A stretch of 64,000 bases of DNA, from contig CP158635.1 in NCBI GenBank assembly GCA_050273025.1, positions 10,416,001 to 10,480,000 of the forward strand. Direction: 5' to 3'. Both the position numbers and the translations under genes were made by a program. The DNA comes from Cenococcum geophilum. Lineage: Eukaryota. The notes beneath the pieces were generated by a model. It worked only from the letters and a program-made list of their open reading frames with translations, made no database searches and was not told the DNA's origin. This document shows, in pieces, positions 369-64,000 of this stretch. The first letter of the stretch is position 1, and the number at the start of each line of letters is the position of its first letter.

Positions 369-1443
369 AAAAATGTCTATTCAAAGCGAAGTCACGCCTT
401 CCCTCCGAACAGCAACATCAATATCTATCACAATCAGCCTTTTGGCTTTTCGCTTTGAAATAAGGCTTATTTGATAGAGATTTTGTTGTTCATTCGTCTT
501 ATAGCCTTGATAATGCTATGCCGTACGGCGTTGTGTTGTCGTCGCGATAAAACGTCTTACCCCTGGAGGATCGCGAAGTTTCGCGTCGCGTCTTTCCACA
601 GCTGATAAGTAGTCTTTCCTGATAATTTTTCCCATAGGGTTTTTCAACAGGTTTTGAATTGACGCTTTCCAGCTTCCTTCTCCTATCGTCGTCGTCGTTA
701 ATAGCCTTCGATATTACCTACCCGAACGGTTATTAATGATACTCTATGGGCGCAAAGAGACGACATATATTCCTACTCCTATATTGGTTATTAGGCGCAG
801 GCCTTATACCGCTAGGTTTGTCGTTAATAGCCTTTGATATTACCTAGGTTCTGGGTTACCCAAATGGTCTTTTAACAATACCCTACGGGCGCAAAAAAAG
901 ACGAGATATATTCCTACTTCTATATTGGTTGTGGGGCAGGCCTCGTACCGCTAGCTTCTAACGGTACGCGTTGTTTGGGGCAATAAGTATGTAATCATCT
1001 ACCACTGCTTAAGATAGTAGGGAACCTACTATGCAATACAGCAGGCTGAGATGATTACCCTCTCCTTGGGCCTACACCCCCCAATACAATACACTATTCA
1101 GAATATATCTCTATCTCTGCGAGCAAGTGAATAGATAAAAATGTCTATTTAAAGCGAAGTCATGCCTTCCCTCCGAACAGCAACATCAATATCTATCACA
1201 ATTAGCCTTTCGGCTTTTCGCTTTCCCACCCTCCACCCTATAGATAGATTTTGCAGCCTCTTAGGCTTGCGGTAGGCCCGAGGGGGGCAATAAGTGTGTA
1301 ATCATCTACCACTGCTTGAGATAGTAGGGAACCTACTATGCAATACAGCAGGCTGAGGTAATTACCCTCTCCTTAGGCCTATACCCCCCAATATAATACA
1401 CTATTTAGAATATATCTCTATCTCTGCGAGTAAGTAAATAGAT
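369..1443. mobile_element. Non-coding element with split direct repeats A1-internal-B1A2-spacer-B2, inserted in Gypsy F (non-autonomous Ngaro/PAT-like, or two head-to-tail Helitron-like units)
   Basis: A1 369-456 matches A2 1137-1224 (88 bp). B1 977-1136 matches B2 1284-1443 (160 bp), and B1 abuts A2. Much less RIP-mutated than the flanks. No TSD seen. Confidence 0.6.
694..954. repeat. Imperfect tandem duplication (~125 bp unit)
   Basis: gtcgttaatagcc...ttcctact..tatattggtt...ccgctag occurs at 694-815 and 820-954. Confidence 0.85.
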
Positions 1444-9414: not shown

Positions 9415-10571
9415 ATGCTTGGCTGTAAGAACTTTTGCTTCTAGCGGACTTAAAGCTATTTACAGTTGGTCTTCCTCCGCAGTGTCGTGATCTTTATTAA
9501 ATATCCTAAGGTTTCTACCTATACTATCCGTAATATAGCTCCGCGAATAGGCCCATATCAGCACGCCCTAATTAAGAATCTTCTTTAACTTAGAGCAACT
9601 TAAGCGGAGTATGCCTCTACCGCTAGTTATATAACTCGCTTAATTACCGCAATTAGGAGGAACTTATGGATATTTAGTTCGACTTGGGCACCTCTAAATG
9701 GTAAAGGTAGCCAGTTTTTACTAAGCAATCGAATAATTGTGGTAATACTAATACGGCTAGAGGAAAAGCCAACTCTCTTTAGTAATAAGTTGCAGTAGTT
9801 AATCTATAATATCTTTGGTGTCATAGTAAGCCGCTATACAATATTTTAAAAGCTCTATTTAGCTAGCTAAATAAGAAAGCGGGTAAGCTAATTAGATCCT
9901 CTTATTATAGAGCTTAGAGAGTAGCTTATATAAAGTAGTGTTACCAGGTAGCCCTTAAGCGCAGCTCTTACAATCGCGATATATATTTCGCTATTATATC
10001 ACAGTATACCGCCAATTAATTAGTATTTATAAATAAGTCTAGTGCGGATTTAAAGACGGGCGTACGGAAGACTAGCTAGGCTCCCTCTAGTGTTATACTA
10101 ATATTATATACACTATATAATTGGGGTGAGACAAGGCTTAATATACTACCTACGTATACAGTTAACGGCGTACTAGTAGCCTTAGTATATAAAGGCTTAA
10201 CAAATGGCGAAGGCTTTAAGTTCTGGGTAGCAAATACTCTTCTACCGCGGTATAATCGCTTTCCTACTAAGCAATCAGTAGTAGTTATAGATAACGCCAG
10301 CTTCCATTACTTAGAGAGGATATAAGCTCTCTTTAACGCGTTTAGGGTTAAGCTTGTATATTTACCTATATACTCACCTAATTTAAATCCAATTAAAGAG
10401 TTTTTCGGAGAGCTAAAAGCTTTTATTTAGCGGGAGTGGTTCTCTTAGGTAGAGCACCCTAAAAGCTTCAACTATAGCTTTAAAGCCTTTCTTCTTTAGA
10501 GTATAGATAAGGTTGGCAGCAAGAGCAAGAGCGCAAGAGGACATTTCCAACATAGTGGGTATAACTGGTAA
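9415..10571 (+). pseudogene. RIP-inactivated Tc1/IS630-type DDE transposase (start approximate)
   Basis: 'SVVVIDNASFHY' at ~10275-10310, 'YLPIYSPNLNPIKEFFGELK' (YSPDLNPIE motif) at ~10360-10420, and C-terminal 'GHFQHSGYNW*'. Confidence 0.9.
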
Positions 10572-16739: not shown

Positions 16740-19700
16740 TATAATCTGCAAAAATACAAATAAAAGATTTATTAATTTATTTAAACTAAGTAATGCGAGT
16801 GTTGGTTACATAAGGGGATATTACGTAGCTATGGTTCGTAGATAGTATAATAATTATTATTCTATATATCTTAATAAGGGAGGGCGAGGAGCTTAAGGCT
16901 CCTTGCTACGCTAGTGCCGCGGCGATATATAACGGCAACTTGCTATATATAATGGCAATGTGCCTTATATAGTAACCACTTACCTTTATTCCTAATACTA
17001 GCAACTTTTCTTTTATAGTTGCTATCTATATATATATACCGCTTAACTAGCGGAATAAATATCAGTCCTTTTTACTTACTATTGCTATTATAATATAAGT
17101 CTCGCTGCCCCAAAATTTGCCTTTTAGCACGTAGTGCTTTCTTACTTAGGAGTTATAGGTAGATATCTTGTTTAAAGGGCCGCTAAGGCGCTAGTAGTAA
17201 GCGAGCTAATAGCGATTTTCTATCCCGGGGATAGAAAATCCTAATTAGCTAGGTTAAGTTAGGGTTTATAGAATGTTATACCCCCCCCTCTAAAAAAGTT
17301 TTAGCAAGAGAATCTAACTAATTAGATAACTTTAACCGCTGGTTAAAGTTCCTAAATATTTTAAGACCTTATATAACTAAGAAATTTCTAGGGACTCCCT
17401 TTTAACCTAACCTTTAACTTATATACGTAGAGTATTTATGTTAATAAATGTCTCTAGTGCCTTATTTGGGTTTGCCTTCGTTATTATATCTACCGGGTTA
17501 TCTTAGCTATTAATCTATTAAATCTTAAAAAGTTTTTAACGCTTATAGGATTGCCGAAGTGCTATAATATTAATTATAAGGCGCTTCTTCTTTATAGTAC
17601 TAAGCTTAACTAAATACTTATAGAGGGAATATAAGTTAGTGTATACAATTATAGGGATAATAGGAAGTTTAAGTCGATCTATAATTATCTTTAGGGTAGT
17701 TCCAATTGTAATTACTATATTAACTTTGCTAACTATTCTATATATCTCTAACGCTAAAACACTTTAGGTAACGCGTTTGCTCGTAGTTAAGCTCTAATAG
17801 ATAAAATTGCTATAGATTGTGAAGTTATTCTCTCTAGTAAATTTATTCGCGATAATAATTTTATATCCTAATTAGGAACTAAAATCTTTGTTATTTATAA
17901 ACGATCTATTAATAAATATAAAGAGCTTAGCAGTAGGAAGATTAATAGGCACGTAGAGTAGTCCCTGATTAAGATAGTTTATTTACTAAAAAAGACATTT
18001 ATTTAGGGTAAGAACGTCATCCTTAGTTAGTTTTTAGTATTAGGTGGCAATGGAGAGATTAAATAAAGCCTTAGGTTAATAAATAGAAGCAATATAAGCT
18101 TTGTAAGCGTATTGCTCTATATATCCTTACTTTAGGGAATTAACGTTAATAACGTTAATCTTTTTACCTTAACCCTTCTGGCGCAAAGCAATAAAATCCT
18201 TATTTAGGGAGAGGATGTATTTATTAAAAAGTAATAGTATTATTAAATTAAGCTTTTCCTTTAGCTTTGCTATAAGATTTACCTTTACTAGCTTATCCTC
18301 TTTAAGAGCTAAGAATTAGTTATCTCCTAAGATAATTATATTATTAGTTTATATACTAACGATTCTAAATAGGGTTCCCGTAGTTATAATAAGGAAGTAG
18401 GGATTAAATATAGAAGTAGTTATTAAAAGCTTCTCTTTATAGTGCTTACTGTAGGTAGCCTACTAATAGGTTTCTACCTCTGCAATTCTATATAATGGCT
18501 TAAGTATAACTATAATTATATCTTTAGGATATTGGTAACGAATTTGCTCTAAAAGGTATGTTAATATTAAGCGCTAAAGGTATATCTCTAATTAGGTGTA
18601 GGCCTAAGTAATATCTCGTAAATAGACCGCTATTTTATTCTTTATTAAGGAGGGAGCTAATATAATAATAACTTATTAACTAGCTCGTTAAATTATAGGG
18701 GATTATGTAAGAATTATCTCCTTATTATTGTCGTTGTAACCTTAGATAATAAGCCTTAATTTCTTAAATAGGGCATTAGTAGCCTTACCCTTAATCTTAT
18801 TAACTATCCTTAACTTAAAGATATAAACTTTATTAAACTTAATAGGGTTATACTTCTTAAATTTAAAGACTCCTCTTATAATAAGACTGTTGATCTCCTG
18901 CTTATTAGATACTTAGAAAGGAGCTTCTAAAGTTATAATATAACCTTCCTTTTAGAGCTGTTTTGCGAGCTTAAAGTTAACCTTCTCTTTAGCTATTATA
19001 AAGGCCATTAATAACTTAACTCTGCTCTTAATGGCAGCAATAAATTATTCTTTAAAATTAATAAGATATTAGCGATTTTATAATCCCTTTAGGCGACCTC
19101 TACTGCGTTATGGTTATAGCGTATCTACTATAATTATTTTAGGATTGTAGTTGCCTTCTAGAGTACGTTAATTGTGGTTCTCCTTTAGGGTATCTTTTAG
19201 GGCATCCTGTAAAGGCTTAGATTTATTATTTTTGTAGTAAGGCTTAATAATATTTAAATGGAATTAAGTGGGTTTATAAGGCATTTAAATAGTATAAGTT
19301 TAATTATTAATTGCGATGAGTTAATATAGGCCTAACTATTCTCCCTTTTTATGCTATACGCGTACCTTAAACTAGAGTAGCAGATTAAGCGTAGTTAAGG
19401 TGTTTAGGCTATTTTTTATTCCTAGTGCGTTATTAACCTAGTATATAGCGTAGAGATATCGCACCTCCTTTATTGCCTTATAAATAGCCTTAGCTTATTA
19501 TATAATAGAGGGAGATAGTAAAAAATTATTAGTTATTTAAGGGTAGGCGCTAAAGACTAGTAATATAGGTATAAGTCTATCTAGGCTAGCGGAATTGTTA
19601 ATAGCTTTAACAGCTATTTATAAGGTAAGTTCTTTACTAGCATTCTTTAGTTTTAAAGAGATAATCTTATATACGCGGCGTAATGGCGTATAATATTGTT

Positions 19701-20623
19701 ATAAGAGGCTAGCCTAACCAAAATATATAATTATCTAATTGACAGTATTACTGGTAAGTAGAAGGTAAGTTAAAGGTACGTTAAAGATAAGTAAAAGGTA
19801 AAATAAGTTTTTATATATTAAAGGACAAATACTTCTAACTACTTCTATTTAGAGACTAATTGCTAGTTCTTCTCTAGAGGGGAATTAGCTTCCTATATAT
19901 TCCTTTTAAAACGCTAGTAAAACCTTTTGCCTCTAACCTATTTAACTGTGTTTTCTAGAATATAGATGGGATATAGATAAAACCTCCTACCGTTTTATTA
20001 GATATATACCTTCTAGGGGATTCTATTACAATTACCTCCCCTTTTAGGGTTTTAGTTCTTTAAGACTTCGCCTCTACTAAGCTTTTATAGAGTTCTAGCT
20101 AAAACCACTAGGGAAACCCTTAGTAGAAAGGTACTTTATAATGCGGCTTATTACTAGCTTTTTACTAGCGCGGAACTTTACTTTATCTTCTATTTCTCTA
20201 CTCTTCTCCTACCCTAGCTCCTTATAGTGCTTTTATAATGGGATTTTAATAATAGTAATAAAAATTTGGTGGGATTTACCTCTCTAATTTTGGGAATTTG
20301 TTATAAATAGATCTAGAGGTTGTTCGGTATAACGCGTTAACTAACTACTATCCCTATTTACCTAAATGGGCTTTAATAATAACGTCTTTTATTTTAATTT
20401 CTTTCTGTTTATAAATTATTGTCTCTCCCTTATCCTTTTATTAATAATATTATTTATCTCGTTCTTAAATAGGCTGTTTTTATTATATCTTACCTTTTAG
20501 CTTCTATATCTCTAGCCGTACTTCTATTACTGCCTTATTATCTTTTTTAAACGCGTTTATAAGTAATAGGATCTCTACCTTATCTCTTATAACAATGCTA
20601 ACTTCTTAGAGTATTCTCTTATA

Positions 20624-28087: not shown

Positions 28088-31000
28088 GTATCTTTAGTGC
28101 TAGGCTAAATACTCTCCTTTTATCCCTAGGGGATCTTTCTAAATTCCTAAGGCCACTTTTTATAGTACTACTGCTCCTTCTTAAATAGCGTCTCCTTTAA
28201 ACAGTATCCCTAGTAGTTCTCCTATAGATCCCTATAGGCTTCCTCTTATAGAATTTTAGGATCCCTATTATAATAGCGAAATATTTCTATTTTTAATGCC
28301 TATACTTAATCCTATAGTTTTAATTTATAGGGTCTTCCCTATTGCTTTACCTATAGCATATCTAGAACCTTTTCTAAATCTTTACCTTTAGTTCTTAGGA
28401 AGGTTTTAATTATAGTATTATATCCTAGCTAAAGGTACTCCTTAGGTTCCTAACTATTATACGCCTAAGAGTATCCTTCCCAACAAACTAAAAATTCGCG
28501 CTTTTTTTAGCGCCATCTTTAGTCTAAAATATCTTCTACATTCTATTCTAGTTCCCTATTAATTTTGCTAGGTAGGGGCAGTTCTGCACTATTTTTCCTC
28601 CGGTATAGCTTTAGTAAGGAAACATAAAATATGGGATATATTAAATAAGATTTCGGTAATTCCAATTTATAGGCTTAGTTTCCTTTAGTTTTCTTAACTA
28701 TTTTAAAGGGTTTAAGCTACTGGTGATCCAGCTTCTTCTTAATGCGTTTTATTTAGATATTTTTTATAGATAATAAGACTTCGTCTTCTATCTTAAATTC
28801 TTTTAGTATATATTTTTCGTTATAGTACCTTTTTTATATAGCCTAGGCGTCTAGTAAGTGCTTTTTAAGTTCCTCTCTACGAATTCTTATCTATTTAATT
28901 CTTTTAGATGCTACCGGTGCCTTTCTTTTAGGAATAATATCCTTAATATTCTAGGGGTTATTTACTTTTACCCCAAATAATACTTTATAAGGGGTTATTT
29001 TTATACTACTATAGATGCTTATATTATATACGTACTACGCTAAAGCTAACTATAATGTCTAATTATCCTGTTAATAATTAATATAGTAGCGGAGGCAGTA
29101 TTCCAATAACGCATTTAGACGCTCTGTTAGCTTGTCTATTTATAGGTAGAAGGTAGTACTTATCCTTTACTATATTTTTAATAAGAGACAGAATAAAAAC
29201 TAAAATATACTATTAAATACGGTACCTCTATTAGATATAATTCCCCTTAGCATACTAAATAAGAGCCACCGTTCTAAAAACAGGTCTACTAGTTCTACTA
29301 CTATAATCGTTATTATAATAGTAAAGTATCCTAAAAACTTTATATACCTATTAATAATTACTAAGATAGTATTAGTAACCTCTTTAGTTCTTATCTTAGT
29401 AGGGAGTAAGCCTATAATAAAATCTATTGTTAATTCTAATATAGGTCCCTATAGAATAGGAAGCACTAATAACTTACTATATAGGCGATGCCTAGATATC
29501 TATATCCTTTAGTATGTATTACACCTTAATATATAGTCCTTAACCTCTTTAGATATTCCGTCCTAAAAGTATTTCCTTTAAATAGCCTTAAGGGTTCTAT
29601 TAGCACCGTAGTAACCCCTAAAAAGGTTATTATAGAAAACCTTTAAATTTTTGTCTTAAATTACTTAGTCCTTTAGGATATATATAGCACCCTTAAGGCA
29701 TAATAAACCCTTTTAGTCTTGCTGCTATAGCTTCTTAGTAACTCTAGCTAAGTTAGTCTTTATTATATCTTTCCACCTCTCCCTAAAGGTAAAGGCGTCC
29801 CTTTATTAAGCTTAAAGAAGAAAATTTAGAAAGGTTTTATATAGATTACTTACTTTTATTTTACCTACCACTATTATAAACTTAAGGCGTAGCATAAGAC
29901 GTTTTAAACTATTAATGCCAGTAAATTCTCCTACTATTATATAGTATACTACGCTATAAATAGGTATCTCGCCTATTCCCCTTAGATCTAAAAACTCGCA
30001 GCTAATACGCCGTTAAGTTAAAGGTGCCGCGATACCTCTAGCACATCCTATAGAATTTTTACTAATTTTAGGGTACGCTAACTTTATAATATCTACTTGG
30101 TTTATAACCTAGTTTATAACTATATTCTACGGCTCTATAATTATATTACTTTACAGCTATATTACTAGGACCTCTACCCTATTACAAAATTCTATAGTTC
30201 TAGGGAAAGAGTCTTCTATTTTCCTAAGCAAATTTTGCAATATAAGGATTATTTCCCCTATATTGTCCTAGATCCTCTCTATCTTATAATTTAGATATCT
30301 TAATAACCTATTAGCAGGATTTGTCTTCCCTAGGTAGTATATAATTTTAAAGTTATACTATAATAGTGCCTTTACCTATCTTACTTATTAACTGCTTAAT
30401 ACCTTTACAGTTATAAAGTATTCTAGGTTATTATAGTTTGTAAGGACTTTAATAGGATAATTACTTCCTATATAATAATGTCGCCAGTGCTTTATTACTG
30501 CGATTATTGTAAGTAGCTCCTAGTTATGCGTTATATAATGCTACTTTATAGGGGTTATTTTCCTTAACTAAAACGCTATAGGATGCCATTCTCCGTCTTT
30601 TAATTAAGATATAATTGCCCCTAGGGTAAAGCTAGATATATCCGTTTTAAGGTATATATATAGCTTCTAGTAGAAGTATATTAGGATAGGCGCTAATATA
30701 AATAAATCCTTTAACCGGTTTATTGCCTACTTAGCAGCTTCCCTATATATAAAGGGTTTTAACTTCTTACTATTTTTAAATCTTTTTAGTAGATTAGTAA
30801 TTAGGAGTATTACTTATAAATAATAAATAATAAACCTTTGGTAGAAGTTTGCTATACCTAAGAAAACCTATACTTCTTTAAATATTATAGGGTATAGCCA
30901 TTTCCTAATAATATCTACCCGGCTTTTCTCTATTAACACTCCATTAACTCTAATAATAAAGCCTAGAAAATTAATGCTAGTGATATAGAAAGAGCATTTT

Positions 31001-33172
31001 TTTTAAGTTTATATAGAGCTTATATTCCCGTAGTCTTTCTAATACTATTTGTATGTAGTGCGTATATGCTTTATAGTTATTAGAGTAAACTATAATATTA
31101 TTAAGGTAGACTATATATATTATATTTAACAGGCCTAATAATACCTTATTAATATAGGCCTAAAATGTTACCGGTGCGTTAATAAGCCTAAATAGTATTA
31201 TTAGGTACTTAAAGTGGCCGTACCGTGTTTGGAACGCCGTTTTCCACTTATTGCCGGCTTTAATCCGGATTTAATGGTATATATCTTTACGCCTAATAGC
31301 CTATTAATAAGCTCCCCTATTAAGGGTAGCAGGTAGCAATTCTTTATAGTAATCCTATTAAGCGCCTAATAGTTAATATAGAGGCGAAGGGTTCTATCCT
31401 TCTTTAGTATAAATATAATTGGTACCCTTACCGGGCTTATAGAGGGCCAAATCTATCCTTTCTAAAGATTGTCTACTATATACTAATATAATATAGCTAG
31501 CTTGTTTTCTAATAAGTTATATAGTAGTCTAAAAGGAGGTTACTTATCCCCTATATCTATCTTATACTTAACTAATATAGGGTTAAATAAGGTTTATGTA
31601 GCCTCTTTATTAAAGACCTCTTTTAGGTCTATATATTCCTGCGGAATCTTTAGTTCCTTAACTATATATAGCCGGATATCCGAAAATAAATACCCTATGT
31701 CTTTATTCTTAGGGTTAAGAGTGGTATATATAGTATATACCCACCCTTCTTCTTATATATGGCTTAGGAAAGTCTCTTAATCCTTAATTATAATGCGTAA
31801 TTAAGACTTTTGGTGTTAATATAAGGCTAAAGGCCAATTAATATCTGGGTTAACTTAGTAAAGCTATAGGTATCCTAAAATAAAGTTATACCCCTTAATT
31901 TCTGCGGCGCAGAAGCGTATCTCCTATATATTCTATAGACCGTTGTGGTTTTAGCTAGTAATGGGAAACGTCTATTCCCTATAGTACGGAATCCGGTAGC
32001 CTCTAATACTTTAAATGGTGCGCATTTATAAGCCACTAAGGTCCAAATCTAATTCTTTTACTAGTAATTAAGAAATAAACCCTATACTTACGCCGCTGTC
32101 TATAAGGCAGTCTTATATTACTTATTTATTATTAACTTAAATAGAGACAGGAATAACTATACGGTAGTTTACTCCCTCCTTTTCTTATTAGCCTAGTATA
32201 AGGGAGTAAAGATCTACTAGGCTGTCTCTTTTCCTAATTAGGCTAACTCTTACTTCTTTTACTGGTAGAAGCGGCTTATATAGCCCTTCTTACCGCAGTT
32301 ATAACAGGTACATGTCTCCCAGTTCCCCTTTTATAGATTAGGTCTCTACCTATTATTATTTTAGAGTTAACTAGCGTTACTCTAGGGCTATAAGGCCTAC
32401 TTATATTGTCCTTTTATAGAGTGGTTAGGTCAAAATCTGCCCCTATTATTAAAGCTAGGTCTAGTCCTACGCTCTTTATTATTAGCGTCTTATTCCTTTT
32501 ACTTGCCTAAATAGTCTCTTTTAGCATTCTTAATCTAAGTAGCTTTAGAGATAAGCTTTTCTTAAGAGGTAGGAATTTCGCCCTTCTCTTATATAGCCTG
32601 TTAAATCTTAGGTTATAGCTTAGCGAGTAGCTAGTAAAGTTATATAGCGTTATTCTATAGATCTAAGTAGGGTATATTATCTTCTAGTTCTTCTAAGTAG
32701 TTTATAAACTAAACCACAGTCTAACTATCCCACTATTTAACGTTATAGTATCGCTAGTTATAGTCTATCCCTTAATTAGTAGGGTCTTAGACCTAATTAA
32801 CTAACTAGGTTCTAAGTTCGCTAAATTTAAGGGGTGTAGTAAGTTTCTTTTTATAGCGTATTTATAAACTCTTAATAGTGCTATGTAGGAAGGTAGAAGT
32901 AATTAATATCTAATTATATTTGTTAGAGTAACATTTTAGATCTAGCTAAAACTTAGTTTTATATTAATAGATAAAACAATTGTAGTTCTGGAGACTATTA
33001 CCATTATACTTATTAGGCTCCTTTATATAGAATTTAGGTTTTTCTAATGTTATAGCGTAGTATAGCGTTGCCCCTTTAAGTCCGCTTTATATCTAGGGTG
33101 TCTATACTTCTCCTAATTATCCTTATAATTATTCTTAGTAGTTTTAATATACTTATTTTAATTATATCTTTA

Positions 33173-33257
33173 GGCCGTCGAAAACGGATTCTGCACCTGT
33201 ACGTGGTGACGGCTACAAACCTGGGTCTTTGAAGTTCAGACCTAGAGCCAACGCAGA
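33173..33257 (+). ncRNA. HDV-like self-cleaving ribozyme (predicted)
   Basis: P1 GGCCGUC/GACGGCU (33173-79/33208-14, G1.U wobble). P2 UCUGC/GCAGA (33190-94/33253-57). P3 ACC/GGU. L3 UGUACGU. P1.1 GU/AC. P4 CUGGGUCU/AGACCUAG. J4/2 CCAAC with putative catalytic C33248. Confidence 0.85.
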
Positions 33258-34196
33258 GACGTTGCATAGCGCGTGCAAGTAGGACCTGGTGGTTGTGTGC
33301 GTTGTGGGGCGTAGTGAAAAGTTTTCATATGGGATGGTGAGATCTCGAAAACCACTACTGACGGTACCCCTTTATAATACAGCCACTAGTTCTCCTATTA
33401 AGCACCTATGTAATCCAACGTGGATGAATAGCTTTTAAAAGCATCCCCTAGCCCCTAATGGAAAGTATTAACGACCTTATATTGACGGACGAATGAGCGT
33501 ATAAGCAAACGAACAAACGAGTAAATATACGGCCCCTCCTAACCCTTAGGGTAGTCGCCCGCGGAGCATGCGGTTACTTGCCGTTTTTAACTACTAAATA
33601 CTACCTAGCAGCTTAGATTGCGACCCACGGTTTTCCCTATCTCCTTTTAACGGAGTGGTGACCCTTAGAGAGGGCCTAGCTGGGGCCTAGGTATAAAAGA
33701 TACCCAAATAATATAATATCCCGCTCGCTTATTAGTATTACGGTGGTTAGAACGGATGAATCCCCCTTACGCCTTTAATGGCTCTAGGGGGGGGGGAGGC
33801 AAGGCGTATATGGCAGTGGTCTATATAAGAGATAGTGTATAGGGGATGGGCAAGATATGGGACATAAAGAGACAATAAGACACAGCAATCGATTAGCAAG
33901 GCCTAGCTGGGACGTAGTGAACCCTAGCTTTGATAAGCTAGAGAAGGAAGTAGTGGTTCCTAAGGAGTTCAAAACATCTAAGGAGGAGGACGTGCAGTAG
34001 GCCTGTAGGGCCGCTGCTATATGCAAACATGGTAAATCGGGGTTTTTTATCCTACTGAGGCTGCTTATAGGGTTTTTCCTCCCCCAACTGTAGGGTTTTC
34101 TTTATGTAAATTATAAGTTTTCCCCCCTGTGACGGAGTAGTCTGCGTGGGCCAAGATAGGATCCGTATTAGACGTTAATCAAAGAACTACTACTAC
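33173..34196 (+). mobile_element. Non-autonomous non-LTR retroposon (SINE-like, 1,024 bp) with a 5' HDV-like ribozyme and (TAC)n tail
   Basis: 14-bp TSD taattatatcttta at 33159-33172 and 34197-34210. 3' end gaactactactac. No RT ORF. GC-richer than the host element. Confidence 0.85.
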
Positions 34197-37100
34197 TAAT
34201 TATATCTTTAACTCTTTTATTTTTTTATAGGGTTTTATATAGCAACCTCTTTAATAATTCCCCCGTAGTAATTATTTCTAAAGGTCTTATAAAGTTAGAT
34301 GGACTAGCCGTAGCTTCCTAGTCTACTCTTTTATAAGTAGAGGGAATATGCTCCTCTAAGGAGACTCTCTAAGCCTTCTATGGTAAGGGCGTTGCTTTAT
34401 AGGGTATAGGAGTATAGTCCGTTATTATCAATTAATAGCTATATGTTCCTAACGGATTATAAGTAATTAGAATTATAAGAGGCCAGCTTAACCGGAACGT
34501 ATAATTATCTAATTAATAGTATTACTGGTAAGTAGAAGGTAAGTTAAAGGTATATTAAAGGTAAGTAGAAGGTAGAATAAGTTTTTACGTATTAAAGGAT
34601 AAATGCTTTTAACTACTTCTATTTAGAGACTAATTGCTAGTTCTTCTCTAGAGGGGAACCAGCTTCCTATATATTCCTTTTAAGACGCTAGTAAAACCTT
34701 TTACCCTTAACCTATCTAACTATATCTTCTAGAATATAGATGGGATATAGATAAAACCTTTTACTGTCTTATCGGATATATACCTTACAGGGGATTCTAT
34801 TACAATTATTCTACTTTTTTAATACTATTATATGCCTTAACGGGGACTTTCTTAACCTTAATTACTATTGCCTTTATCTATTATTAGAACTCTATAAATA
34901 AGAAGTTCTTTTCTATATTATGGATAATTTAATTAGGGGGTCCTAAATAGACATTAATTTAGTATAATTAAAGGGTATTCTATACGTTTCTAGCTAATAT
35001 ATCTTTTAAAAAACGCGCGGCTTAGAAGGAGGTTAAGAAGTTAATAACTTAGAGTACTGGCTTGCCGCTAAGATATATAACGTTAATAATAATACAGAAG
35101 TTAAAGTTATAGTTATTTTTAAGGGTAAACTTAAATCGGCCAGGGGACTTTTAGTTTATTTAGTAGTAATAGTAGTATTTTATAAGATGCTTAATTGCTT
35201 TAACCTTAACTTTATAGCCTACTTATTAAAGAACCCTAAGTAATTAATGAATGGATAGGTGGCCAAAACGATAGTATAGTTGGCGTAATTCTGACTTAGT
35301 TAAGTGGCTCTAAGTAATACTTTTTTTAGTTAATAAAGGAGTAACTAGGGGTAACCCTACTTGCGTATAACGGGCACCTAATTATCTCCCTAAATAAGTA
35401 TATTTTTAAGGTTATTAAGCCTAACGCCTAATTTATCTATATCTTTAATATAAAATAAAAACGGAGTGTTTATAGGAATAATATGGAAGGTAATATACCC
35501 TAAGGGGGTTTAGACCCTAATTATACTAAAAGAGGTTGTAATACCCTTACTAAAACGAATTATGTGTTGGCCTGCTGTTGAATAGTTAATCTAAATAGAG
35601 CTATTAAGCTATTAAAGGGCTTAAACTTAAGGTTCTCCTACTATAGATACTCTTACGGCTTTAGTATCTAGTATAATACTATAGAAGACGTTTACCGAGT
35701 ATTTATTATTAAAAGAGAACGTAGAGCTCTTCTTTAGCTTATTAAAGATATTTAACTTTGTGATAGAATGGAGCGTAGATTGGTTATTAAGAATAGTAAC
35801 GGTTTATATGCTATCTACCTTACTATACTTAGTAAAGTATTAGTTAGGAAAGTAGTTCTTAATTTCCATATCTATAAGGAGCTGTTTAGTCTCATTAACC
35901 TTACCCTTAAGATCTTTTACGCCTTTATATTAAACTAGGAAGCTTTAAAAGTAGGCCGTAGTAACCTTATAATTTTTAATATTTCTTATACTCTAACGGA
36001 ACTTATTATATACCTCCTTTTACTTATTAAGGGAGTGTCTAGTTAACTAGTAATTTGGCTTCTTATAAATATAGTACTTTTTTTAGCAATTACTTTAAAA
36101 TAAACCTCTATAAGGACCTCTATAATTACCTTATAGTTAATATTAATTATACTCTCTTCTATATTCCCTACTACGGCCACTATATATTTAATTAGTCTAG
36201 TTATAATTATATTAGTTAGGAACGCTTAGTTAGGTAGGGCTTTTAGTATAAAACTATCAAAATTCTTATATTTATATTATAGTACCTACGGCAGAGCGTA
36301 GCTTGGTATATACTCCTTTAAATATATCTATAGGTTTATACAGCGCTAAATTGCACTTAGGAACGCTATAGTAGGCTAAGATAACCTAGTCCCTTAAGCT
36401 GTTCTTATTTTAGTAAGTTTTAGTAAGGCTATATTAGATTTTCTAAAGTTTATTAAAGAGTAGTTAAAGGCACTCTAAATAAGTCTTTATTGGGTTAAAA
36501 GCAATAACTCTCTAGAATATAGTCTCTCGCTATTTAGATATATAAAGTTGGCGATTCTTATTAGTCTTAAAGTGGGCTCTAGTAAGCTAAAGCATTATAT
36601 TAAAGCTATAGTTTTTACCCGTAATATAGTCGTAATAAAATGTTACTACCTGTCCCTTTAATATAATAGAGAAAGCGTGGTAGTACTAATAGCATTAAAT
36701 TTTAACCTTATTGCAATAGTTATAAAAGACCTGTAGTTTTACTCTAAGCATATTATATAGTTCTCCTTTAAACTTCTTCTCTTCGTCTAAATATACCTTT
36801 ATTAAATTCGTAACTTCTTATAGTAGAGACTTACCGATTAGCTGGGATGGAGGGGGTAAAGGTAGTAAAGGGGGTGGTAGAAGAGCACCTTTAGGTAGGA
36901 GAGTACCTCCTAGTAGGAGAGTACCTCTAGGTAGGGGATTAGTATTCTAGGGGTTTTAATACAAATTAAAGTTGCCTTTTAAAGAATATAGGTTAGTTTT
37001 AGGTTTCTATAGTTAACGTATAATCTTAGCTTCCGTCTATACTAGTTCTTTTATACTAATAATAACGGCCTAAATATTACTAGTAATTGGGTTACCGTTC

Positions 37101-43400: not shown

Positions 43401-46400
43401 AGGATTATCCTCTTACTACTATCTTTAAAGCCTTTAGTATAATCCAAGCGCTAGGATAGTATATTAGCGGGATTTACTTTGCCTAGCTTATATTTAATCT
43501 TAAAATTAAACTTAGCTAGTTCCTTAATATACTAGGTCTAGCGAGTAAATAAGCTCTTAGTAGTTATAAAGTACCTAAGATTATTATAATTGCAGAGCAC
43601 GCGCGTTATATACGCGGCGTATTTAAGGTAATAGCGCCATGTCTTAAAGCATTACACTATAGCGAGTAGTTCTTTGTTATACATATTATACCGTACTTTT
43701 AGGCTAGTAAGCTTCTAACTATAATAAGCGATTAAGTGCTAGTAGAGTTAATCTCCCTGCCCTAAAGGCTATAGATGTATACCGCTATAGGCATAATTAG
43801 AAGCATTAGTAATCACTATTAGAGGTAAATTAGGGTTAAAGTAGCGAAGTAGAGAAGCCTATATAAACGCAGCGCGTAGCTTATAAAACGCCTACTATGC
43901 GTTATTAAGCTAGGACTAAGGTTAATACTATTTAATAAGCCCTTTTAACTTACGCTTTTACTTCTTCTCCCTATCTAACGTTAGGTCGCGATATGCCTAT
44001 ATAAGATATGTGTATAGGGGGTATACGGTATCCAAATAGTTCCAGATAAATTGCCTATAGAAGTTAGTAAAGCTAAGGAAGACCTAGATGTCCCTATAGG
44101 ACTTAGGCTTAGGCTATTCCTTAATAGCTTTTATATGGTTAAGGTCTATTATAATACCCCTAGGGGTAATAATAAAGCCTAGGAACTTAACGTTCTTAAT
44201 ATAAAAGATATATTTTAATAGTTTGGCGTATAAGCCCTAAGCGCAGAGCTATCGCAGTACCTGCTTAATATACTCAATATCCTTATCCTTATTATTTAAG
44301 TAAATAAGAATATTATTTAGGTAGACTATATAGATGGTATCTATTAGGGTTTTTAGAGCTTTATAAATATAGCTCTAGAAAGTTATAGGGGTGTTAGTAA
44401 GACTAAAGGGTATTACTAGGTACTTAAAGTAACTATAGCGTGTCTTAAATATGGTCTTCTATTTATCTCCCTTTTTAATATAAATCCTATAGTACGCATT
44501 ATAAAGATCTAGCTTTATAAATACCTTTGCATAGCTAAGCCTATTAAAGAGTTCACCGACTAGCGGTAGGGGGTACCGATTCTTAATTATAATCTTATTT
44601 AGGCGTCTATAGTCGACGTATAGCCGTATTATACCGTCTGCTTTCGGTATAAAGAGGATAGGCGCTCTAGTAGGCGACTTACTAGGCCTAATCTAGCCCC
44701 TTTTAAGAGCACTGTTTAGGTACTTTTATAAGATCTATAACTCTTTCTATAAGAGGTTATAGAGGGGTATTTATGGTAGTGTTTTACCTTCTTCTAAGTT
44801 GATTATATAGTTGTACTTAGAGTTCTGCGGTAGTATACTTGCTAGCTTATTAGAGAAGATATTAATTTCCTCCTTATATATATCTAGTAGACTAGGGGCT
44901 ATAGAGGTTAAAGTAACTATTATATAGTAGTGTGCTTTTAGGAGCTAGTAGAGAGAAGGGTGTAGCCAATATGCGTTTTATAGGTATGCTTACACTAAGA
45001 GTGCATACAGCTCTACTATAGTATACTTAATAGTTTTAGGGTTTTAATTACCTCCCCCTTATATATAGGTGATCTGTGCTAGCACCGGAGGGTCTCTATA
45101 GGTACTCGCTATTAGTGGCAGCAGGTCCTCTACTATATTTATAACTAGTATCTCTACGTCTAAAGGGTCTGTATGGGTACTCGCTATTAGTAACAATAGG
45201 TCCTCTATTATATTTACGACTGGCGTAAAAAAGGAGTCTTCTAGCCATAGTAAATAGACTATTTTGCCAGCTATAATATCTACTAGGAAAGTATTAAGGG
45301 TAACTATCTAGAGGCGTTTAGGGTCTAAAGTACCCTAGATAAACTGTTTAGAATGGAAGCTAATTAATAGATCTACTTCCGCGAGCTAATCCTATTTAAG
45401 AACTATATTATAACTATTAAATAAGCCGCCCTAAAAGGTCTGCGGGCCGATAGTGTAAGGGGTACCCTAGAAGTCGCTAGTGGTGACTATTAGATTATAG
45501 GTATCCTAGATTATTATTTAGTTACTATTAAGGAAACGTGCGATAGGTTTACGTAAATATAGCGCGTAGCGTATAGGCAGGTTAAACCTATAGACGACGT
45601 CTTAATTAATAAGGTTGATTTAGTACCTATTATCGTATAAAGTATATAGGCGGACTTTGCCCTAGGGCGTATCTATTATAATATATACTATAATGCGTTT
45701 CTTCTCTCCCTCTATATTAGGCCCTAGTTGCAGTTAAGAGAGATATATTACTAGGGCTTTATATTTCCGAAGGCCGAGCTAACTTCTTTCTATTAGCCTA
45801 CATCTAGTATTCCTTACAGTAGCCACCTGTGGTCCTTTAACTTACGTGCGTAGTACTAGTATTTAGGGGGTCCCCTAAGCTATCTAGCTTTTAGGTAATC
45901 TCCCTAGAAGTTTACTTAAAGTATTGCCCTTTTTAGGTTCTATTCCCTAAGCCTAACTCTATAAAGCCTATGCTGCGACCGCGCTTCGTACGCGATAATT
46001 TGCCGCTGCTACTTACGCGATCTTCCGCGAGCTTCGTAGTATTAAGCAATTACTCTATACAGCTGATTTTATTAAAGAGGTCTTTAGCGGTTCTTACCCG
46101 TTAGGCGAAGTTCTGGCAGAAGAGCTCTGCTTATAGGTAGGCTAGAAGATATAAAAACTAAAAGTCTACCTATTATTTAAAATTAATAAAAGGGGTATAA
46201 GAGAAGAGGTCTTCTAAGCTACGTATATAGGCTAGGAAGATATTAAACCTCTAGTTCTCCTTTATAACAGCTATATAGTATATTATAGCGTTATTAAAGC
46301 GTCTTACTATAGGGTTCCTAATTTGGTTTTGGACTATAGTCTTAAACTTATCCTATAGTAAAGGACCCTTATCCTTAGTGCCTAACCAGCAATAAACTAG

Positions 46401-48094: not shown

Positions 48095-49258
48095 AATCTC
48101 TCTACCTAGTGTGCTTTATTTTTTAAGTAACTAAATATAGCTTATCTTTACTAGAAATTAATTAGTAAGTAGCCTAAAAATAAAAGAAATAACTAGATAT
48201 ATACTAATCTAGTATAAGCCCTCCGCCCTAAAGTTATAAATTATAGGCGGTTAAGGGTATCCTATATAGATACCTAGCGCTTTAAGGCGAAAGCTAAATA
48301 TGTTTACCTTCTTAATTTTCTATCTTATAGATATACTCTTAAAGAAAGGTATATTAAGTATACTTTTTATTATTATAAATAAAGCATCTTCCCCTTTAAT
48401 AGTACTATATTAAGGAGCTCTTTAATAATATTATAGTTCCTAAATGCCTTTACTATAATAAGTATAGCCAGTATTAGGAGTACAGGGCTGTAAATAAGAG
48501 GTATTAATACTATACCCTTATATAAAGTATGTTCTAGCCTGCTAATATAAGAATTAAAACTGCCGCTTAATTTAATAAGCTAAGTAACCTAGCGCTTACC
48601 TCTTATCTAGTATTATAGTTATATTCTTAGCATCTTAAATAATTTAAATGGCAAACTCTACATTTCTATGCTTATTGCGAAATACTCTAAAGGTTATATC
48701 TTATATTATAACTAAGTTAATCTATTTACATACTACGCTATATATATACGTATTAGGGAGGGAGGGGTTTCCTTACTTTATAGTGTAAACCCTAGCTAGA
48801 ACCCGCTTAATAGCTAAACTTAATATACCTACTAACTTATATAAAGAATAAATAATAGCTATAAGATCCGCTTAATTATTTACTTTTATTACTAGTTATT
48901 TATACGTAATCCAATCTGCCGTTTATAGCTGCCTTTTTAAATAAATTAAGTAGTTCTTAGTTATAAACCTTTTCAGCCTTTTTTATAGGTATTTTTAGTT
49001 TATTAGCTAGTGGGTCTTTAATAAACTAAATAAGATTAGAACTCTAATAAGAAGAAAATAGGGAAATATAGATAGAATATATATTTATAATAAAGGCGAC
49101 TCGTAGGCGCTAAGCAGGCGAGTCCCAAAAGGCGGGGAGATGGATCACGGGGTTTTCTCATTTTTCTTAAATAGAGTTTTCTCCCCACATGTAAATAAGG
49201 AGTAGTCCGCGTGGGCCCAATAGGGATCCGAATCGGACGTTAAGCAATGAATTATTAT
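48095..49258 (+). mobile_element. Probable second non-LTR retroelement fragment sharing the 3' tail of 33173-34196 (5' boundary uncertain)
   Basis: 49199-49258 ggagtagtccgcgtgggcccaatagggatccgaatcggacgttaagcaatgaattattat aligns with 34134-34196. Possible TSD tatattta at 48087-48094 and 49259-49266. Confidence 0.5.
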
Positions 49259-50550
49259 TATATTTATAATAAAGAGGGTTATATTTACGGGTATTATAGT
49301 ATTAATATAATACTAGCTAGTTATAAAATCTTTCTAGTACTAGCCAATAGTTAGATTATTCTTAACACTATTAATACTATATACTATATTCTTAATAAAA
49401 TCTTTTAAGGATACTAGGTTATATAGAGAAGAACTAAGATTTTCTTTAGCGAATTTATTTAATAAAGGGTTAGAGTGGGATAGAATCCAACCGCTATAGT
49501 ATACTAATTATAACTTACTAATACTACAGCTCTACCTTTCTAAGATAAGCTTTCTTTATCTTTAGCTTAAAGCGCTTTAAACTTTAGTACCATCTATACT
49601 CTCCCTACTTTAATTAGAGCCCTTTACCCTTACTATAGTAAGGAACTCACGAGGGTTTTTTTTAGGTATTTTATAAAGAAATAAACAAGGCAAGTAGAAG
49701 CTAAGGTAAAGAAAAAAGGGAAGAGGAATATAAAGATAGGCTTATAAAAGCGGACGGGCGAGCTACGGAATAGCAGGTAAAAGGAAAAAGAGAAAGGGAG
49801 AGAGAGAGAGAGAGGAGATCTTATAGTAAGAGATAAGGCACCTCCTCTTTAACTAACACCTTTAGGGACGCCACATTAGATACGGGCGCAGCTTAAAACG
49901 GGCAAATGCTCTATTTTAAAGGGAGCCTAGTTTTAGGAACCCTATAGGCCTAAAACGCGGCCCTTAAGATCGTTATATAGAGTTAATAATTTGCATTAGT
50001 AAGGACGTAGCACTTTTAAGGCATAATTAGTTAATAAAGATAGAGGAGTAGTAACGTAACTAAGCAGCCTAAGTATAACCTAAGTAAGAGGGTAAGCAGC
50101 CTAAGCAGCGGGTAAGTTAAGGGTGCTTAGCGCCTAAGTAGAGCGGTAATGCTAACTAACTAAATCGGATTCCGCCGAGGGGAGTTTTAGTCTATAACTA
50201 CTGTTATTAATATTAATTAGTAGTCCGTATACTAATAAGTAAGTAAAGAATAAGGACTCTGTCTTATTTAAACTATAAAGAAAAGAAGCTATTTATATAT
50301 AAGATAGGTATCTAAAATAGGAAAGGGGGGGGGGTATATAACTAAAATGGGGGTAGTAGTATAACTGGAATAGGAATAAGGACAGGGTAATAGACTAAAT
50401 TTAACCTAAATCGACAGTTAGTATCGTCGCATTAATTAAGAATTACCTTAATAGCGGTAAACTCTACCTCTAATACTTCCTCCTTACGCTTGTACTATAT
50501 CGGTAATATTTATATTTTAGTATTTTTAGGCGCATTTAATAGGGCGTAAC

Positions 50551-55400: not shown

Positions 55401-58400
55401 ACTCTGCCCACTAGACTTAGCGCTAGTTTAGCTGCTTAGTAGTTATAAATATCTATAGGTTCTTATAGTCGGTAATAATTTTAAACGGCTCCTTAGTCCC
55501 TTATAGCTTAGGACGCTATTCCTCTAAAGCCTTAATAATAGCTAGGAGTTCTTTATTGTAAATCTTATAGTTATATTCTGGCGCGGAGTGCTTTATAGAG
55601 AAAAATGCAACCGGTCTTAATTTTCCGTCATTATTATACTAGAAAAGGACTCCGCCAAAAGCCTAATTCAATGCGTCTATCTCTACTACTGTTTTCTTTA
55701 TATAGTTATAATATACTAGTACTAGTGCTAAAGTAAAGGCTCCCTTAAGGGCCTTAAATAATTTAGCTTATTCTAGTCCCTATAGCCATCCGATATCCTT
55801 TTTTAGAAGTTTTATTATAGGTATAGTGATAGCAGAGTAGCCTTGGATAAATTATCGGTAGAAGTTTGCGAAGCTAAGAAATTGTTATAGTTCTTTAATT
55901 AATATCGGGTCCTTCTATTCCTATAAGGCCTGTATCTTCTTAGGGTCTATAGTCATGCCATTAGTTAAGATAATTAAGCTAAGGTATTTTGTTTTAGTAG
56001 AGTAAAACTTAGACTTATTAATATTAATCTAAAGTCTAGCATTACCGAGTCTTTGGATGACTTCATTTATATACTTAGTATGCTCGGCGCGTGTTTTAGA
56101 AAAGATAAGGACGTTATTAAGGTAGGCGGTATAGTAGTCGTTAAGGGCGTTATATAGAATATGGTTAATATAGTTCTGGAATATAGCGGGTGCGTTATAG
56201 AGGCTAAATAGTGTAATTAGCATCTTATAGAGTCCGAACCGGGTAATAAATATTATAAGCCACTTATAGCCCTCCGCAATCCGGATTTAGTTAAATATAG
56301 CAATTATATTAAGTTTAGTAAAGTACTTGGCGCTATAAAGTACGTTAAGTGTCTCGCGGATTAGTGGCAGTGGGTATTAATTCTTAATAGTGACTGTGTT
56401 TAGGCCTTGGTAGTTATAGTAGATTTATATACCGCCGCCGGGCTTAGTAGCAAGGAGGAGTGGTACGGTAGCTAGTAAGGTTAATTCGCGGATAAAACCC
56501 TTATCTAGCATCTTATTAATCCACTTCTTTATACACCTAAGTTTAGTAGGTAAGAGTGGTCTATTTTTATAGTACGGGGCCTAGTTTCCAGGGGTGATCT
56601 CAATTTTATAGTCCTATAGTTAGTAAGGGGGCAGCTTATTTACGTTCTTAGGGAGGAAGTGCTTAATATATTTACTAAACTCCTTTAATAGGCATTATAG
56701 AATGTTTTCGCGGGTTAATCCTAGTTTGCCTTTTAGGAATTTTTTAATATTAGTGTCGACTATCTTCTAACGTAAAAGCTCGGGTTTGGTTTTTAAATTT
56801 GTCTTAAGGAAGTTATAGAAATAGGGGGGGAGCGCTTTACGGGCTTCCTTTATTATATAGTCGCCTTCTACCAGCTAGCAGAAAGACCTTTCTAATAGGT
56901 TCGGTACTTCTATTAGGCCTATAGGCAGCTCTTTAAGCAGCTATTAGTGCTTATCTTATTTAACTAGTTCTACTAGCTCCGCTATATAGATCCTTATTAC
57001 CTTTACATCTTTTTATTTATAGAACTGGGTAAAATTAACAATATAGGTATATTTAATATCGTCTAGGTTAGGGCGTGTCTGGCTCTCTAGTGCTATAGCT
57101 AGGCTAGCACGGCTTAGTTGGCCTAGGGGGGCGGAAACGAGGCGGCGGCCCTATATAGTACGCGCGGGAGACGGGTGTGAGGTTGGGCGTTACGGTGGCG
57201 CGGTTTCTATTATTTGGGTCTTAATAGTTCTATAGCTAGTCCTTACTATAATGTGAGCTATAGTGTGCATATATAGTATATGGCTTAGTTCTAGGTGTTA
57301 GGCTAGGCGGCTGGGGTTTAAATAGTGCCTAGGTTAGGGTTAGTTTCTTAGTAGTGGTGGTATAAAGCAGACCTTCTTCCTTGGTCTCGGTAGGGCTAGC
57401 TAGCCCATTATTTTAGTTTTAAGTGCTAGGTTAGTCCAGTCTTCTACTATTTCGTTTCTTTGCAGCTATATAGGCTCCCCTTTATTAGGAACGTCTTCTA
57501 CTATTAGGGCTTTGTATATAGTCCTAGGCACTAGGCTTAGTAGTGCTAAGTATCTATATAGGGCGTCCCTACTAACGTCAGCTATCCCCTATAGGAGGCA
57601 GTGCCTAGAGCAGTAGTCTAAGTTAAAGTGGATTTTAAGTTTCCTAAAGCTGGGACGGGGCTTGTGCTTCTAAAGCCAGGGCATACCTAGGATAATTAGG
57701 GTAGTAGGCGAGAGTTTAGTAATAAAAAAGAGTATGGCTTTAGTATAGAGGCCGATTAATATTTGGGCGGTAAAGTAGTCCGTAATAAGCGAAGTTAGGA
57801 TGCTATCTATAAGGCGCAGTGGCCTAGGTACTAGCAGCTTCTTAGTTATAACATTATACTTTCTTATAATAGACTCTGCATTAGTAAATGCTATTATAGT
57901 ACTACTAGAGTCTACTAGGCTTACTATATTAATATAAACTTAGGGGTATAGGTTACGTAATAAGGAGAGTTGGGTTTAAATAAGGATTAATTTCTTATTA
58001 CTGTTTGCTAATCTAAGATTAAGTAGCAGTTTACTAATAGAAAGAACTAATTAATTTAGTAACAGGGACCTAATCTTCTCGTCTTCCTCCTTATATAGTT
58101 TAGACCCTTAGGCACGACTTAGTCTAAGGGTCTGCCTTTTAACGACTAGGGTATAGGGCTGTCTTAGCGGGGCGGTCCAGTGTCCGTCTAGCTGGCGGTG
58201 TTTGTCTCTGTTTTGGTTGGGGTATAGAAAGACAATACCTTGCTAACAACGTAGCTGTATTTGTATTTGCTAGCGCAAAGTTACTAATACTAGGCGTTGT
58301 TAACGGGTTAGGCTCCTATATAGGGTATAGTTTAGAGTAACTAAGCCGTAGGGTTAAAGGGGGGGGGTTATCTACTGCGGCTATAATAGGCTCCGCGGTC

Positions 58401-63473: not shown

Positions 63474-64000
63474 TGTAAGAGGCTAGCCTGACCGGAATAT
63501 ATAATTATCTAATCGACAGTGTTACCGGTAAGTAGAAGGTAAGTTAAAGGTAAGTTAAAGGTAAGTTAAAGGTAGAATAAGTTTCATGTATTAAAGGATA
63601 AATGCTTCTAACTACTTCTATTTAGAGACTAATCGCTAGTTCTTCTCTAGAGGGGAACTAGCTTCCTATATATTTCTTTTAAAACACTAGTAAAACCTTT
63701 CGCCCCTAACCTGTTTAACTATGTCTTTTAGAACATAGATGGGATATAGATAAAACCTCCTACCGTCTTATTAGATATATACCTTCTAGGGGATTCCGTT
63801 ATAATTGCCTCCCCTTTTAGGGTCTTAGTCCTTTAAGACTTTGCCTCTACTAAGCTTTTATAAAGTTCCGGCTAAAACTACTAGGGAAACCCTTAGTAGA
63901 AAGATACTTTATAATGCGACTTATTGCTAGCTCTTTACTAGCGCGGAACTTTATTTTATCTTTTATTCCTCTGCTCTTTTTCTACCCTAGCTCCTTATAG
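63474..64000 (-). mobile_element. Gypsy family C, second copy (C'): 3' LTR, PPT and start of 3' region; runs off the window
   Basis: LTR 63474-63803 (tgtaagaggc...) matches 19700-20030, and 63804-64000 matches 20031-~20227. Confidence 0.93.

Follow-up and report, generated by a model that had tools for sequence, protein, structure and literature searches.

A high-copy non-coding retroposon family, apparently fungal, with a predicted hepatitis delta virus-like ribozyme at its 5' end, seen from one copy in Cenococcum geophilum

A 64,000-nucleotide stretch of the Cenococcum geophilum assembly (contig CP158635.1, positions 10,416,001 to 10,480,000; hereafter the window) holds at 33173..34196 a plus-strand insertion of 1,024 bp that is non-coding and moderately mutated, and the question raised by this locus is what kind of element it represents and what sets its 5' end. 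A first-pass annotation had read it as a non-autonomous retroposon headed by a hepatitis delta virus (HDV)-like ribozyme. The insertion, delimited from the sequence and from the alignment of its family, is bounded by a target-site duplication (TSD) of 14 bp, taattatatcttta, at 33159..33172 and 34197..34210. The two repeats are exact over 14 bp, the first base of the insert is G33173, and the element ends in ...caaagaac(tac)3 at 34196, the (TAC)3 tail itself occupying 34188..34196. The annotated outline of the insertion (length, exact TSD and (TAC)n tail) is borne out by this reading and by an empty site, as in a contig of the DNA run X1 the sequence passes from 33172 to 34221 across 9 letters, and so represents the host repeat without the insert. 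The GC content is 0.437 in the bin 33001-34000, versus approximately 0.30-0.33 in the adjacent bins. No second copy of the target site is present elsewhere in the window, and within the 64 kb the element recurs only as its last 62 nt, at 49199-49260. The locus is probably an old copy of a high-copy, approximately 1.0-kb, non-coding retroposon that lacks long terminal repeats (LTRs; non-LTR), whose predicted HDV-like head would cleave just 5' of its first nucleotide, G1.

The family to which this copy belongs was collected by an exact scan of metagenome contigs with a 20-mer (element nt 23-42), and the collection is therefore anchored in the head of the element. At least 121 metagenome loci match the 20-mer, and all family counts below refer to these listed loci. 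Part of the element is held by 24 sequencing runs, and the 20 listed among them come from 12 studies, 6 of them RNA. Nearly all listed copies open with GGCCGUC directly after unrelated flank; the exceptions have mutated first bases (L005, L010, L060, and L089), carry an extra A in J1/2 (four copies), or are cut by contig ends (L036 and L107). The upstream 28-mers are all distinct in the 116 testable loci (116/116). Downstream sequence extends for 1,150 nt or more in 50 loci, and an exact TSD of 8-19 bp (median 14) was found in 39 of them; these TSDs abut G1 without extra bases on the left and follow the tail on the right, and they define a median element length of 1,012 bp (range 936-1,139 bp). 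The upper end of this range comes from L005, whose TSD call (9 nt, length 1,139), if no other, is probably spurious. The tail is reached within approximately 940-1,060 nt in 46 of the 50 loci, and in other copies it consists of (TAC)2-5, (TAT)n, (ATT)/(AAT)n, or TCTC. The five consecutive positions at the start of the TSD, -14 to -10, are each at least 95% A/T, which suggests that the endonuclease used by the element prefers a TA-rich nick site.

A non-coding retroposon family with many independent insertions is thereby established. The same G follows unrelated flanks, the copies carry individual TSDs of about 14 bp, and the 3' ends are short tandem repeats, in support of the retroposon that the first-pass annotation had proposed; no copy extends upstream of G1, and the insert is not a one-off internal deletion. 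An origin of the copies in segmental duplications, rather than at unique sites, is contradicted by the distinct flanks and the individual TSDs. Together with the short tandem tails, the A/T-rich nick site, and the conserved 3' module described below, the individual TSDs indicate that the family spreads by target-primed reverse transcription. The family apparently belongs to a fungus. The copy in the window differs from the family majority at 133 of 987 aligned columns, and 65 of these differences are of the C>T or G>A type, for the most part in CpA/TpG and CpG contexts. When the DNA runs X1 and X5 were aligned to the element and its 150-bp flanks, thousands of short contigs were obtained, the differences of which from the window copy are mostly T>C and A>G; relative to its family, the window copy thus carries C>T and G>A changes. 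It is an old copy with mutations like those of repeat-induced point mutation (RIP).

The element has no evident coding capacity. No stop-free stretch of the window copy exceeds 105 aa, the longest being on the minus strand and without a Pfam match, and neither the open reading frames (ORFs) nor Pfam revealed a reverse transcriptase (RT) in the insert. In the majority sequence the longest open stretch is 73 aa, and frames shift between copies. A recurrent open frame from nt 3, with a length of 84-169 aa in many of the copies, was weighed as a coding candidate and rejected, as the same peptide strings fall in different frames from copy to copy. ARAGORN detected no tRNA in the insert, and no small-RNA head of any Rfam family was found at E<=10 in the window copy and six others, in agreement with the annotation, which had noted neither an RT ORF nor an obvious tRNA or 5S head. 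These results bear on whether the family could be a classical short interspersed element (SINE) that is transcribed by RNA polymerase III (pol III) from an unrecognised small-RNA head. Its high copy number, lack of coding sequence, flanking TSDs, and tail resembling that of a long interspersed element (LINE) would all suit such an origin, but a length of about 1 kb and the want of any tRNA or Rfam small RNA at the threshold given above do not. Runs of four to six T residues terminate pol III transcription, and several such runs (T4-T6) lie inside the element and recur in L036, where they would likewise end a pol III transcript. A pol III SINE is therefore highly improbable.

What then marks the 5' end of every copy? 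The first 86 nt of the element (33173..33258, plus strand) can be drawn as an HDV-like nested double pseudoknot with predicted cleavage just 5' of G33173, a prediction that draws on a descriptor match, a chance estimate, and pairing across the family. The 5' strand of P1 (GGCCGUC, 33173..33179) pairs with GACGGCU at 33208-33214 and includes the wobble G33173.U33214 (P1 1-7/36-42 and G1.U42 in element numbering, where nt 1 is 33173). The 5' strand of P2 (33189..33194; nt 17-22) pairs with 33253-33258 (nt 81-86). P3 (33195..33207) is formed by 33195-33197 with 33205-33207 (nt 23-25/33-35) and encloses the 7-nt loop L3, UGUACGU, at 33198-33204 (nt 26-32). Nucleotides 2-3 of L3 can be read as pairing with 33215-33216 in P1.1, as G27-C44 and U28-A43, which confirms the GU/AC assignment of the annotation. 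P4 is a hairpin at 33221..33245, in which 33221-33228 pairs with 33238-33245 (nt 49-56/66-73), and J4/2 reads C-C-A-A-C at 33248..33252, with C33248 (C76 of C76-C-A-A) as the candidate catalytic cytosine. HDV-like ribozymes are marked by a G+1 in a G.U wobble closing P1 and by a J4/2 cytosine, in the context C-N-R-A, that acts as general acid; U and G at positions 1 and 6 of L3 are a further mark of the class, and both are present at these positions here. In P2 the window copy has U17.G86 versus C17-G86 in the family, and 33189 is T>C in nearly all of the depth.

These parts were combined, with tolerant ranges, into a descriptor of seven elements: P1 (7 bp, closed by G.U), P3 (3 bp), L3 (6-8 nt), P1.1 (2 bp), P4 (4 bp or more), C-N-R-A, and P2 (5 bp or more). 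On both strands of the window (128 kb) the descriptor is found at exactly one site, on the sense strand at 33173, so that the complete double pseudoknot claimed to begin at G1 is present in all its named parts and is the sole descriptor site of the window. Random first-order Markov sequence yielded 4 sites in 30 x 128 kb at the composition of the window and 2 in 30 x 128 kb at that of the element, i.e., an expectation of approximately 0.07-0.13 sites per 128 kb, or about one per 1-2 Mb. Given this frequency, and a match that begins on the sense strand at the first base of an independently delimited insert, a chance occurrence is very unlikely. Of 116 listed heads, 87 match the whole descriptor, and in every one of these the match starts at the nucleotide homologous to G1 (offset 0 in 83; offset -1 in 4, which are 1-nt insertion variants); the other 29 fail it. 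As a pattern, the HDV-like fold at nt 1 is real, far from chance, and kept in the family.

Conservation was examined in 93 distinct heads. Standard pairs occupy 98.0% of 2,350 cells, as against 27-45% when the partners are slid by 1-3 columns. Double-sided changes were counted in 37 cells (20.8 +/- 6.0 in shuffles, none of 500 of which reached 37), all of them in three P4 pairs that alternate among GC, GU, and AU. P1 is paired in 98.8% of cells, and its 5' strand changes mostly by C>U to give U.G (13 cells); P2 is paired in 97.8% and shows no covariation. The collected copies have the common start G and the differing TSDs that the annotation had suggested looking for, and they show covariation in P4 only, not in P1 and P2. 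Four length forms of P4 exist beside the common one, three shortened and one lengthened, and the hairpin is kept in each. The G.U at the base of P1 is present in 89 of the 93 heads and C76 of J4/2 in 91, although the constancy of C76 does not demonstrate selection because this C lies outside a CpA context. The transversions and indels that define subfamilies fall in J1/2 (A/U at nt 12 in 47/93 heads, as well as an insertion of 1 nt) and in the distal stem and loop of P4. None falls in P1, P2, or P1.1, where nearly all changes are transitions after which a G.U pair remains. As measured outside the search pattern, the head has 93% majority identity and 0.9% transversions, and the body of the element has 84% and 3.1%, respectively. 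The prediction of an HDV-like ribozyme head is thus well supported in silico.

Two observations on the copies stand beside these counts. A second block, nt 351-400 (33523..33572 in the window, plus strand), has 96% majority identity in 40 copies versus 84% in the body; it is as conserved as the predicted ribozyme head, holds a CCGC...GCGG hairpin, and may be a promoter or a protein-binding element. In L034, nt 1-560 (oriented) on the minus strand contain a second copy, which is degenerate and belongs to a subfamily of greater divergence. Its head did not pass through the 20-mer selection, and in it the P1 pair G5-C38 is flipped to C5-G38, yet other mismatches are present; its P4 is longer and of a CUGCUG...CAGCAG type that also occurs in L054 and L008.

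At the other end of the element, the last 60 nt or so before the tail are conserved. This 3' module (GGAGUAGUCUG...CAGACGUUAAUCAAAGA, 34134..34185, plus strand) contains, according to RNAalifold on 39 copies and one short element, a stem GUCUG/CAGAC at 34140-34144/34169-34173. The short element is a retroposon of approximately 164 bp at 49095..49258 (plus strand) that ends in (ATT)n and has its own 15-nt TSD, tatatttataataaa, at 49080-49094 and 49259-49273. It shares with the 1-kb family only the 3' module, in which its stem reads GUCCG/CGGAC, a compensated change relative to GUCUG/CAGAC. One 3' module on two different elements fits recognition by a common RT, and the module is presumed to be the recognition site of the partner RT. 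The first 55-100 nt of the short element have no match among the 121 listed loci, and the element may represent a second family of non-autonomous elements or a 5'-truncated copy of the 3' untranslated region (UTR) of the partner LINE. As for the fungal LINEs ending in (TAC)n that the annotation had mentioned, no paper containing 'TAC repeat' was found in the literature searched.

The family is transcribed. In the raw RNA run X21, depth on the element reaches 1,325 on one strand versus 17 on the other, and contigs of the metatranscriptome X15 also hold the element. First mates in X21 fall on the minus strand, which under the usual library convention means that the RNA is sense; no reads fall on flanks specific to the locus. 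Of the X21 reads, 95% run on into sequence unlike the window copy, which indicates that the expressed copies belong to other subfamilies, and the loose ends match the type of L036, which, like L053, has the short P4. Since copies occur in both orientations, one-stranded RNA would point to a promoter of their own or to a few master copies, and it suggests that either of these fits at least as well as passive read-through. One may guess that a dual role of the head as promoter and ribozyme, as in Pr77 of the trypanosome element L1Tc, would explain the sense-only RNA.

The same data could be accounted for by an ordinary retroposon whose 5' end is simply the transcription start, in which case the HDV-like drawing would be a coincidence or would reflect some other structured leader, for instance one that serves RT or ribonucleoprotein binding or RNA stability. 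Abundant sense-only RNA, in suggesting an own promoter, speaks for such a start, and several further observations weigh against a self-cleaving head. The covariance scan that the annotation had proposed came back empty, as the window copy gave no Rfam match at the gathering score or at E<=10, and the HDV-clan models gave none at E<=10 in six copies with fewer mutations; models of this sort are specific to lineages and are unable to score pseudoknots. Pseudoknot-free folding of four copies gave z-scores of -0.40, -1.63, +0.42, and -0.24, an unremarkable minimum-free-energy stability, although such thermodynamic z-scores carry no information for a pseudoknot. Three of the four copies favour an alternative fold without P1, in which P2 and P4 are accompanied by a small 5' hairpin (nt 3-15) and a further hairpin at about nt 30-45. 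P1.1 is non-canonical, with G-C and U-A instead of two G-C pairs. The core helices P1, P2, P3, and P1.1 lack covariation, and P3, L3, and the 3' strand of P1 were fixed by the 20-mer search pattern, for which reason the invariance of P3 and L3 is not evidence. The covariation in P4 runs through C>T and G>A, changes that RIP-like mutation also produces. The descriptor was our own and was composed after the match had been seen. Molecule ends in X21 do pile at 33182 (182/543, the sole such pile), but this pile was rejected as a mapped RNA 5' end and regarded as probable alignment clipping, because the A-run at nt 9-12 is longer by one A in the expressed type. On the side of the insertions, 11 of the 50 long loci have no exact TSD, and four of these have no tail within 1,342 nt and look interrupted. 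Finally, a search of the 64-kb window and of the 121 listed loci revealed no partner LINE; the analysis covered approximately 260 kb of this genome.

A transcription start without a ribozyme would nonetheless have to accommodate a match to all seven parts of the descriptor, in sense and exactly at nt 1, at the low background frequency given above. It would equally have to accommodate the G.U at the base of P1, the C-N-A-A of J4/2, and the U and G of L3, all of which are in place. The subfamilies, moreover, remodel P4 and yet keep its helix. Nor does a promoter in the head count against a ribozyme there, as the two are compatible in Pr77 of L1Tc, according to passages of the report on that sequence (PMC3383444). 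The transcription-start explanation is accordingly regarded as improbable, and a cleaving HDV-like head remains the favoured one.

How the family came by its head is a separate matter. It may be an internally deleted derivative of an autonomous LINE with the same head and 3' end, in the manner of the R2 SIDEs of Drosophila. This possibility concerns origin, is compatible with an active ribozyme, and is set against an independent acquisition of the head. It would follow the route by which the closest known elements arose, as far as the passages of PMC3414825 describe it; the second conserved block and the shared 3' module resemble remnants of LINE UTRs, and 1 kb is long for a SINE. However, no longer element with the head was seen, since 46 of the 50 long loci reach a tail at the usual distance and the other four run into ORF-free sequence. 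The tail-less loci L022, L041, L057, and L079 had been considered as long autonomous versions and were rejected, L022 and L057 having no ORF longer than 102 aa and looking interrupted. Among 100 stop-free segments of at least 55 aa in the window, Pfam matched only minus-strand RVT_1 fragments and one DDE_3 fragment, nothing LINE-specific. For the collected loci, 50 of 96 stop-free segments of at least 90 aa were scanned, these lying mainly in the flanks, and the matches were to methyltransferase, DUF3716, and DDE_Tnp_4, with no RT and no endonuclease. In the window and the flanks, within the approximately 260 kb of this genome that were covered, neither an endonuclease nor a non-LTR RT domain was thus encountered. 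A deletion origin is a serious contender, though we would place it somewhat below an even chance.

A more doubtful, though not negligible, idea is that the head is a free-standing module of promoter and ribozyme that parasitises a LINE lacking a ribozyme, which would make the family a chimeric, self-sufficient 'pol II SINE' (pol II, RNA polymerase II). If this were true, a protein-less RNA of 1 kb would make its own exact 5' end from any genomic site, and the family would be one of the repeats with the highest abundance and transcription in a fungal genome with active RIP; the G-C and U-A pairs of P1.1 would be a natural exception to the two-G-C rule in an active ribozyme.

Under the favoured explanation, the first 86 nt of the RNA would fold into the nested double pseudoknot and cleave just 5' of G1, so that transcripts starting upstream would be trimmed to an exact, flank-free 5' end. 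Copies would then begin at the same G because a full-length cDNA reproduces the end made by the ribozyme. An autonomous LINE would supply the endonuclease and RT and would recognise the 3' module that the family has in common with the short element. The element, or a few master copies of it, would possess a promoter as well, as in Pr77 of L1Tc.

The insertion lies in a host repeat. The first-pass annotation had placed it in the gag/leader of a Gypsy element, which is made plausible by a minus-strand RVT_1 fragment at 30980-31159, detected by Pfam on stop-free segments of the window. Two more minus-strand RVT_1 fragments (44462-44692 and 56032-56286) and a plus-strand DDE_3 transposase fragment (10080-10322) were detected; like the first, they belong to AT-rich repeats that are heavily degraded. 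At about 22-26 kb of the window, gag, protease, and integrase of a copia-like kind can be read. The right flank of the host repeat, 34473-34596, recurs in the same orientation at 19699-19822 and 63476-63595 with 86-88% identity, and it may be an LTR or another repeat structure of the host element. Among the metagenome loci, L002 contains an intact-looking host ORF with a methyltransferase domain (229-867, plus strand) whose end lies some 400 nt upstream of an equally oriented element, possibly a read-through setting, and in L017 an intact-looking host ORF with DUF3716 (180-542, minus strand) adjoins the insertion.

HDV-like ribozymes are reportedly present at the 5' ends of the autonomous non-LTR elements R2 and RTE, as Webb in 2009, Eickbush in 2010, and Ruminski in 2011 are said to have described. 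L1Tc is another autonomous non-LTR element with such a ribozyme at its 5' end, as passages of PMC3185411 state. The heads of R2, RTE, and L1Tc have the same fold in the same place (nt 1) and the same proposed function of excision from a longer transcript, but these elements encode their own RT and the present family encodes nothing. Non-coding elements are closer. The R2 SIDEs and R2/R1 hybrid SIDEs of Drosophila combine an HDV-like 5' ribozyme with a LINE 3' end to which the RT of the partner responds, and passages of PMC3414825 (Eickbush and Eickbush, 2012) add that SIDEs are copied by target-primed reverse transcription and that the hybrids have 14-bp TSDs. Position of the ribozyme (predicted here) at the very 5' end, the LINE-like 3' end, the mode of copying, and (for the hybrids) a TSD of 14 bp are thus shared with the present family. 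On the other hand, SIDEs are described in the same passages as rare, site-specific in ribosomal DNA, dependent on co-transcription with 28S, and derived from known parent LINEs, whereas the present family, apparently a fungal one, is very abundant and scattered over A/T-rich sites, with a length of about 1 kb.

In trypanosomes, NARTc and other short elements bearing Pr77 have a head that serves as both internal promoter and ribozyme, going by passages of three reports (PMC3383444, PMC3185411, and PMC4035085), and Pr77 of L1Tc itself has both activities in the passages of the first of these. NARTc, RIME, and SIDER are portrayed there as dispersed, abundant, short, and non-autonomous, with an HDV-like ribozyme (Pr77/L1TcRz) in their first 77 nt or so that is shared with a LINE. 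They differ from the present family in their poly(A) tails, their TSDs of 7-11 nt, and their place in another eukaryotic lineage, and they have no sequence similarity to it. The reports on plant retrozymes (PMC4918200) and on non-LTR elements of Schistosoma with a twister variant (PMC8501958) describe further elements that bear ribozymes. These likewise carry a small self-cleaving RNA inside a non-autonomous retroelement; their ribozymes are hammerhead or twister, not HDV-like, and retrozymes pass through circular RNAs.

Within fungi, variant HDV ribozymes have been described that occur in many copies, with 230 representatives in 26 species, and cleavage was demonstrated for those of P. chrysogenum and A. 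niger, according to passages of the report (Li and Breaker, 2017, PMC5640933). The fungal variants presented in these passages have a C-G pair where cleavage takes place, form an E-loop in P4, and place one additional nucleotide between P2 and P3; in contrast, the present head has a G.U, a plain P4 hairpin, and no such nucleotide. The words 'transpos', 'retrotransposon', and 'repetitive' do not occur in the main text of that report, and its passages on these ribozymes give no biological role. No fungal ribozyme-headed retroposon was found in the open-access literature searched. The proposal of a distinct SINE-like class was overstated, because R2 SIDEs (PMC3414825) and NARTc (PMC3383444 and PMC4035085), as far as their passages describe them, already combine an HDV-like head with a non-autonomous element and are of the same kind. 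What is new is the apparently fungal member; the kind itself had been described in insects and trypanosomes.

Such a family would escape standard SINE and LINE finders, since it lacks an ORF, a tRNA head, and poly(A). Its defined 3' recognition module is a handle for finding the partner LINE, and the abundance of its RNA makes the chemistry of the 5' end (5'-OH versus cap) directly checkable in culture, which would separate promoter from ribozyme. If the head cleaves, the family would be a fungal counterpart of the R2 SIDEs of flies and the NARTc of trypanosomes, and a much larger natural experiment, with hundreds to thousands of dispersed copies and several subfamilies that remodel P4. It would also tie the HDV-class ribozymes of fungi to retroposition.

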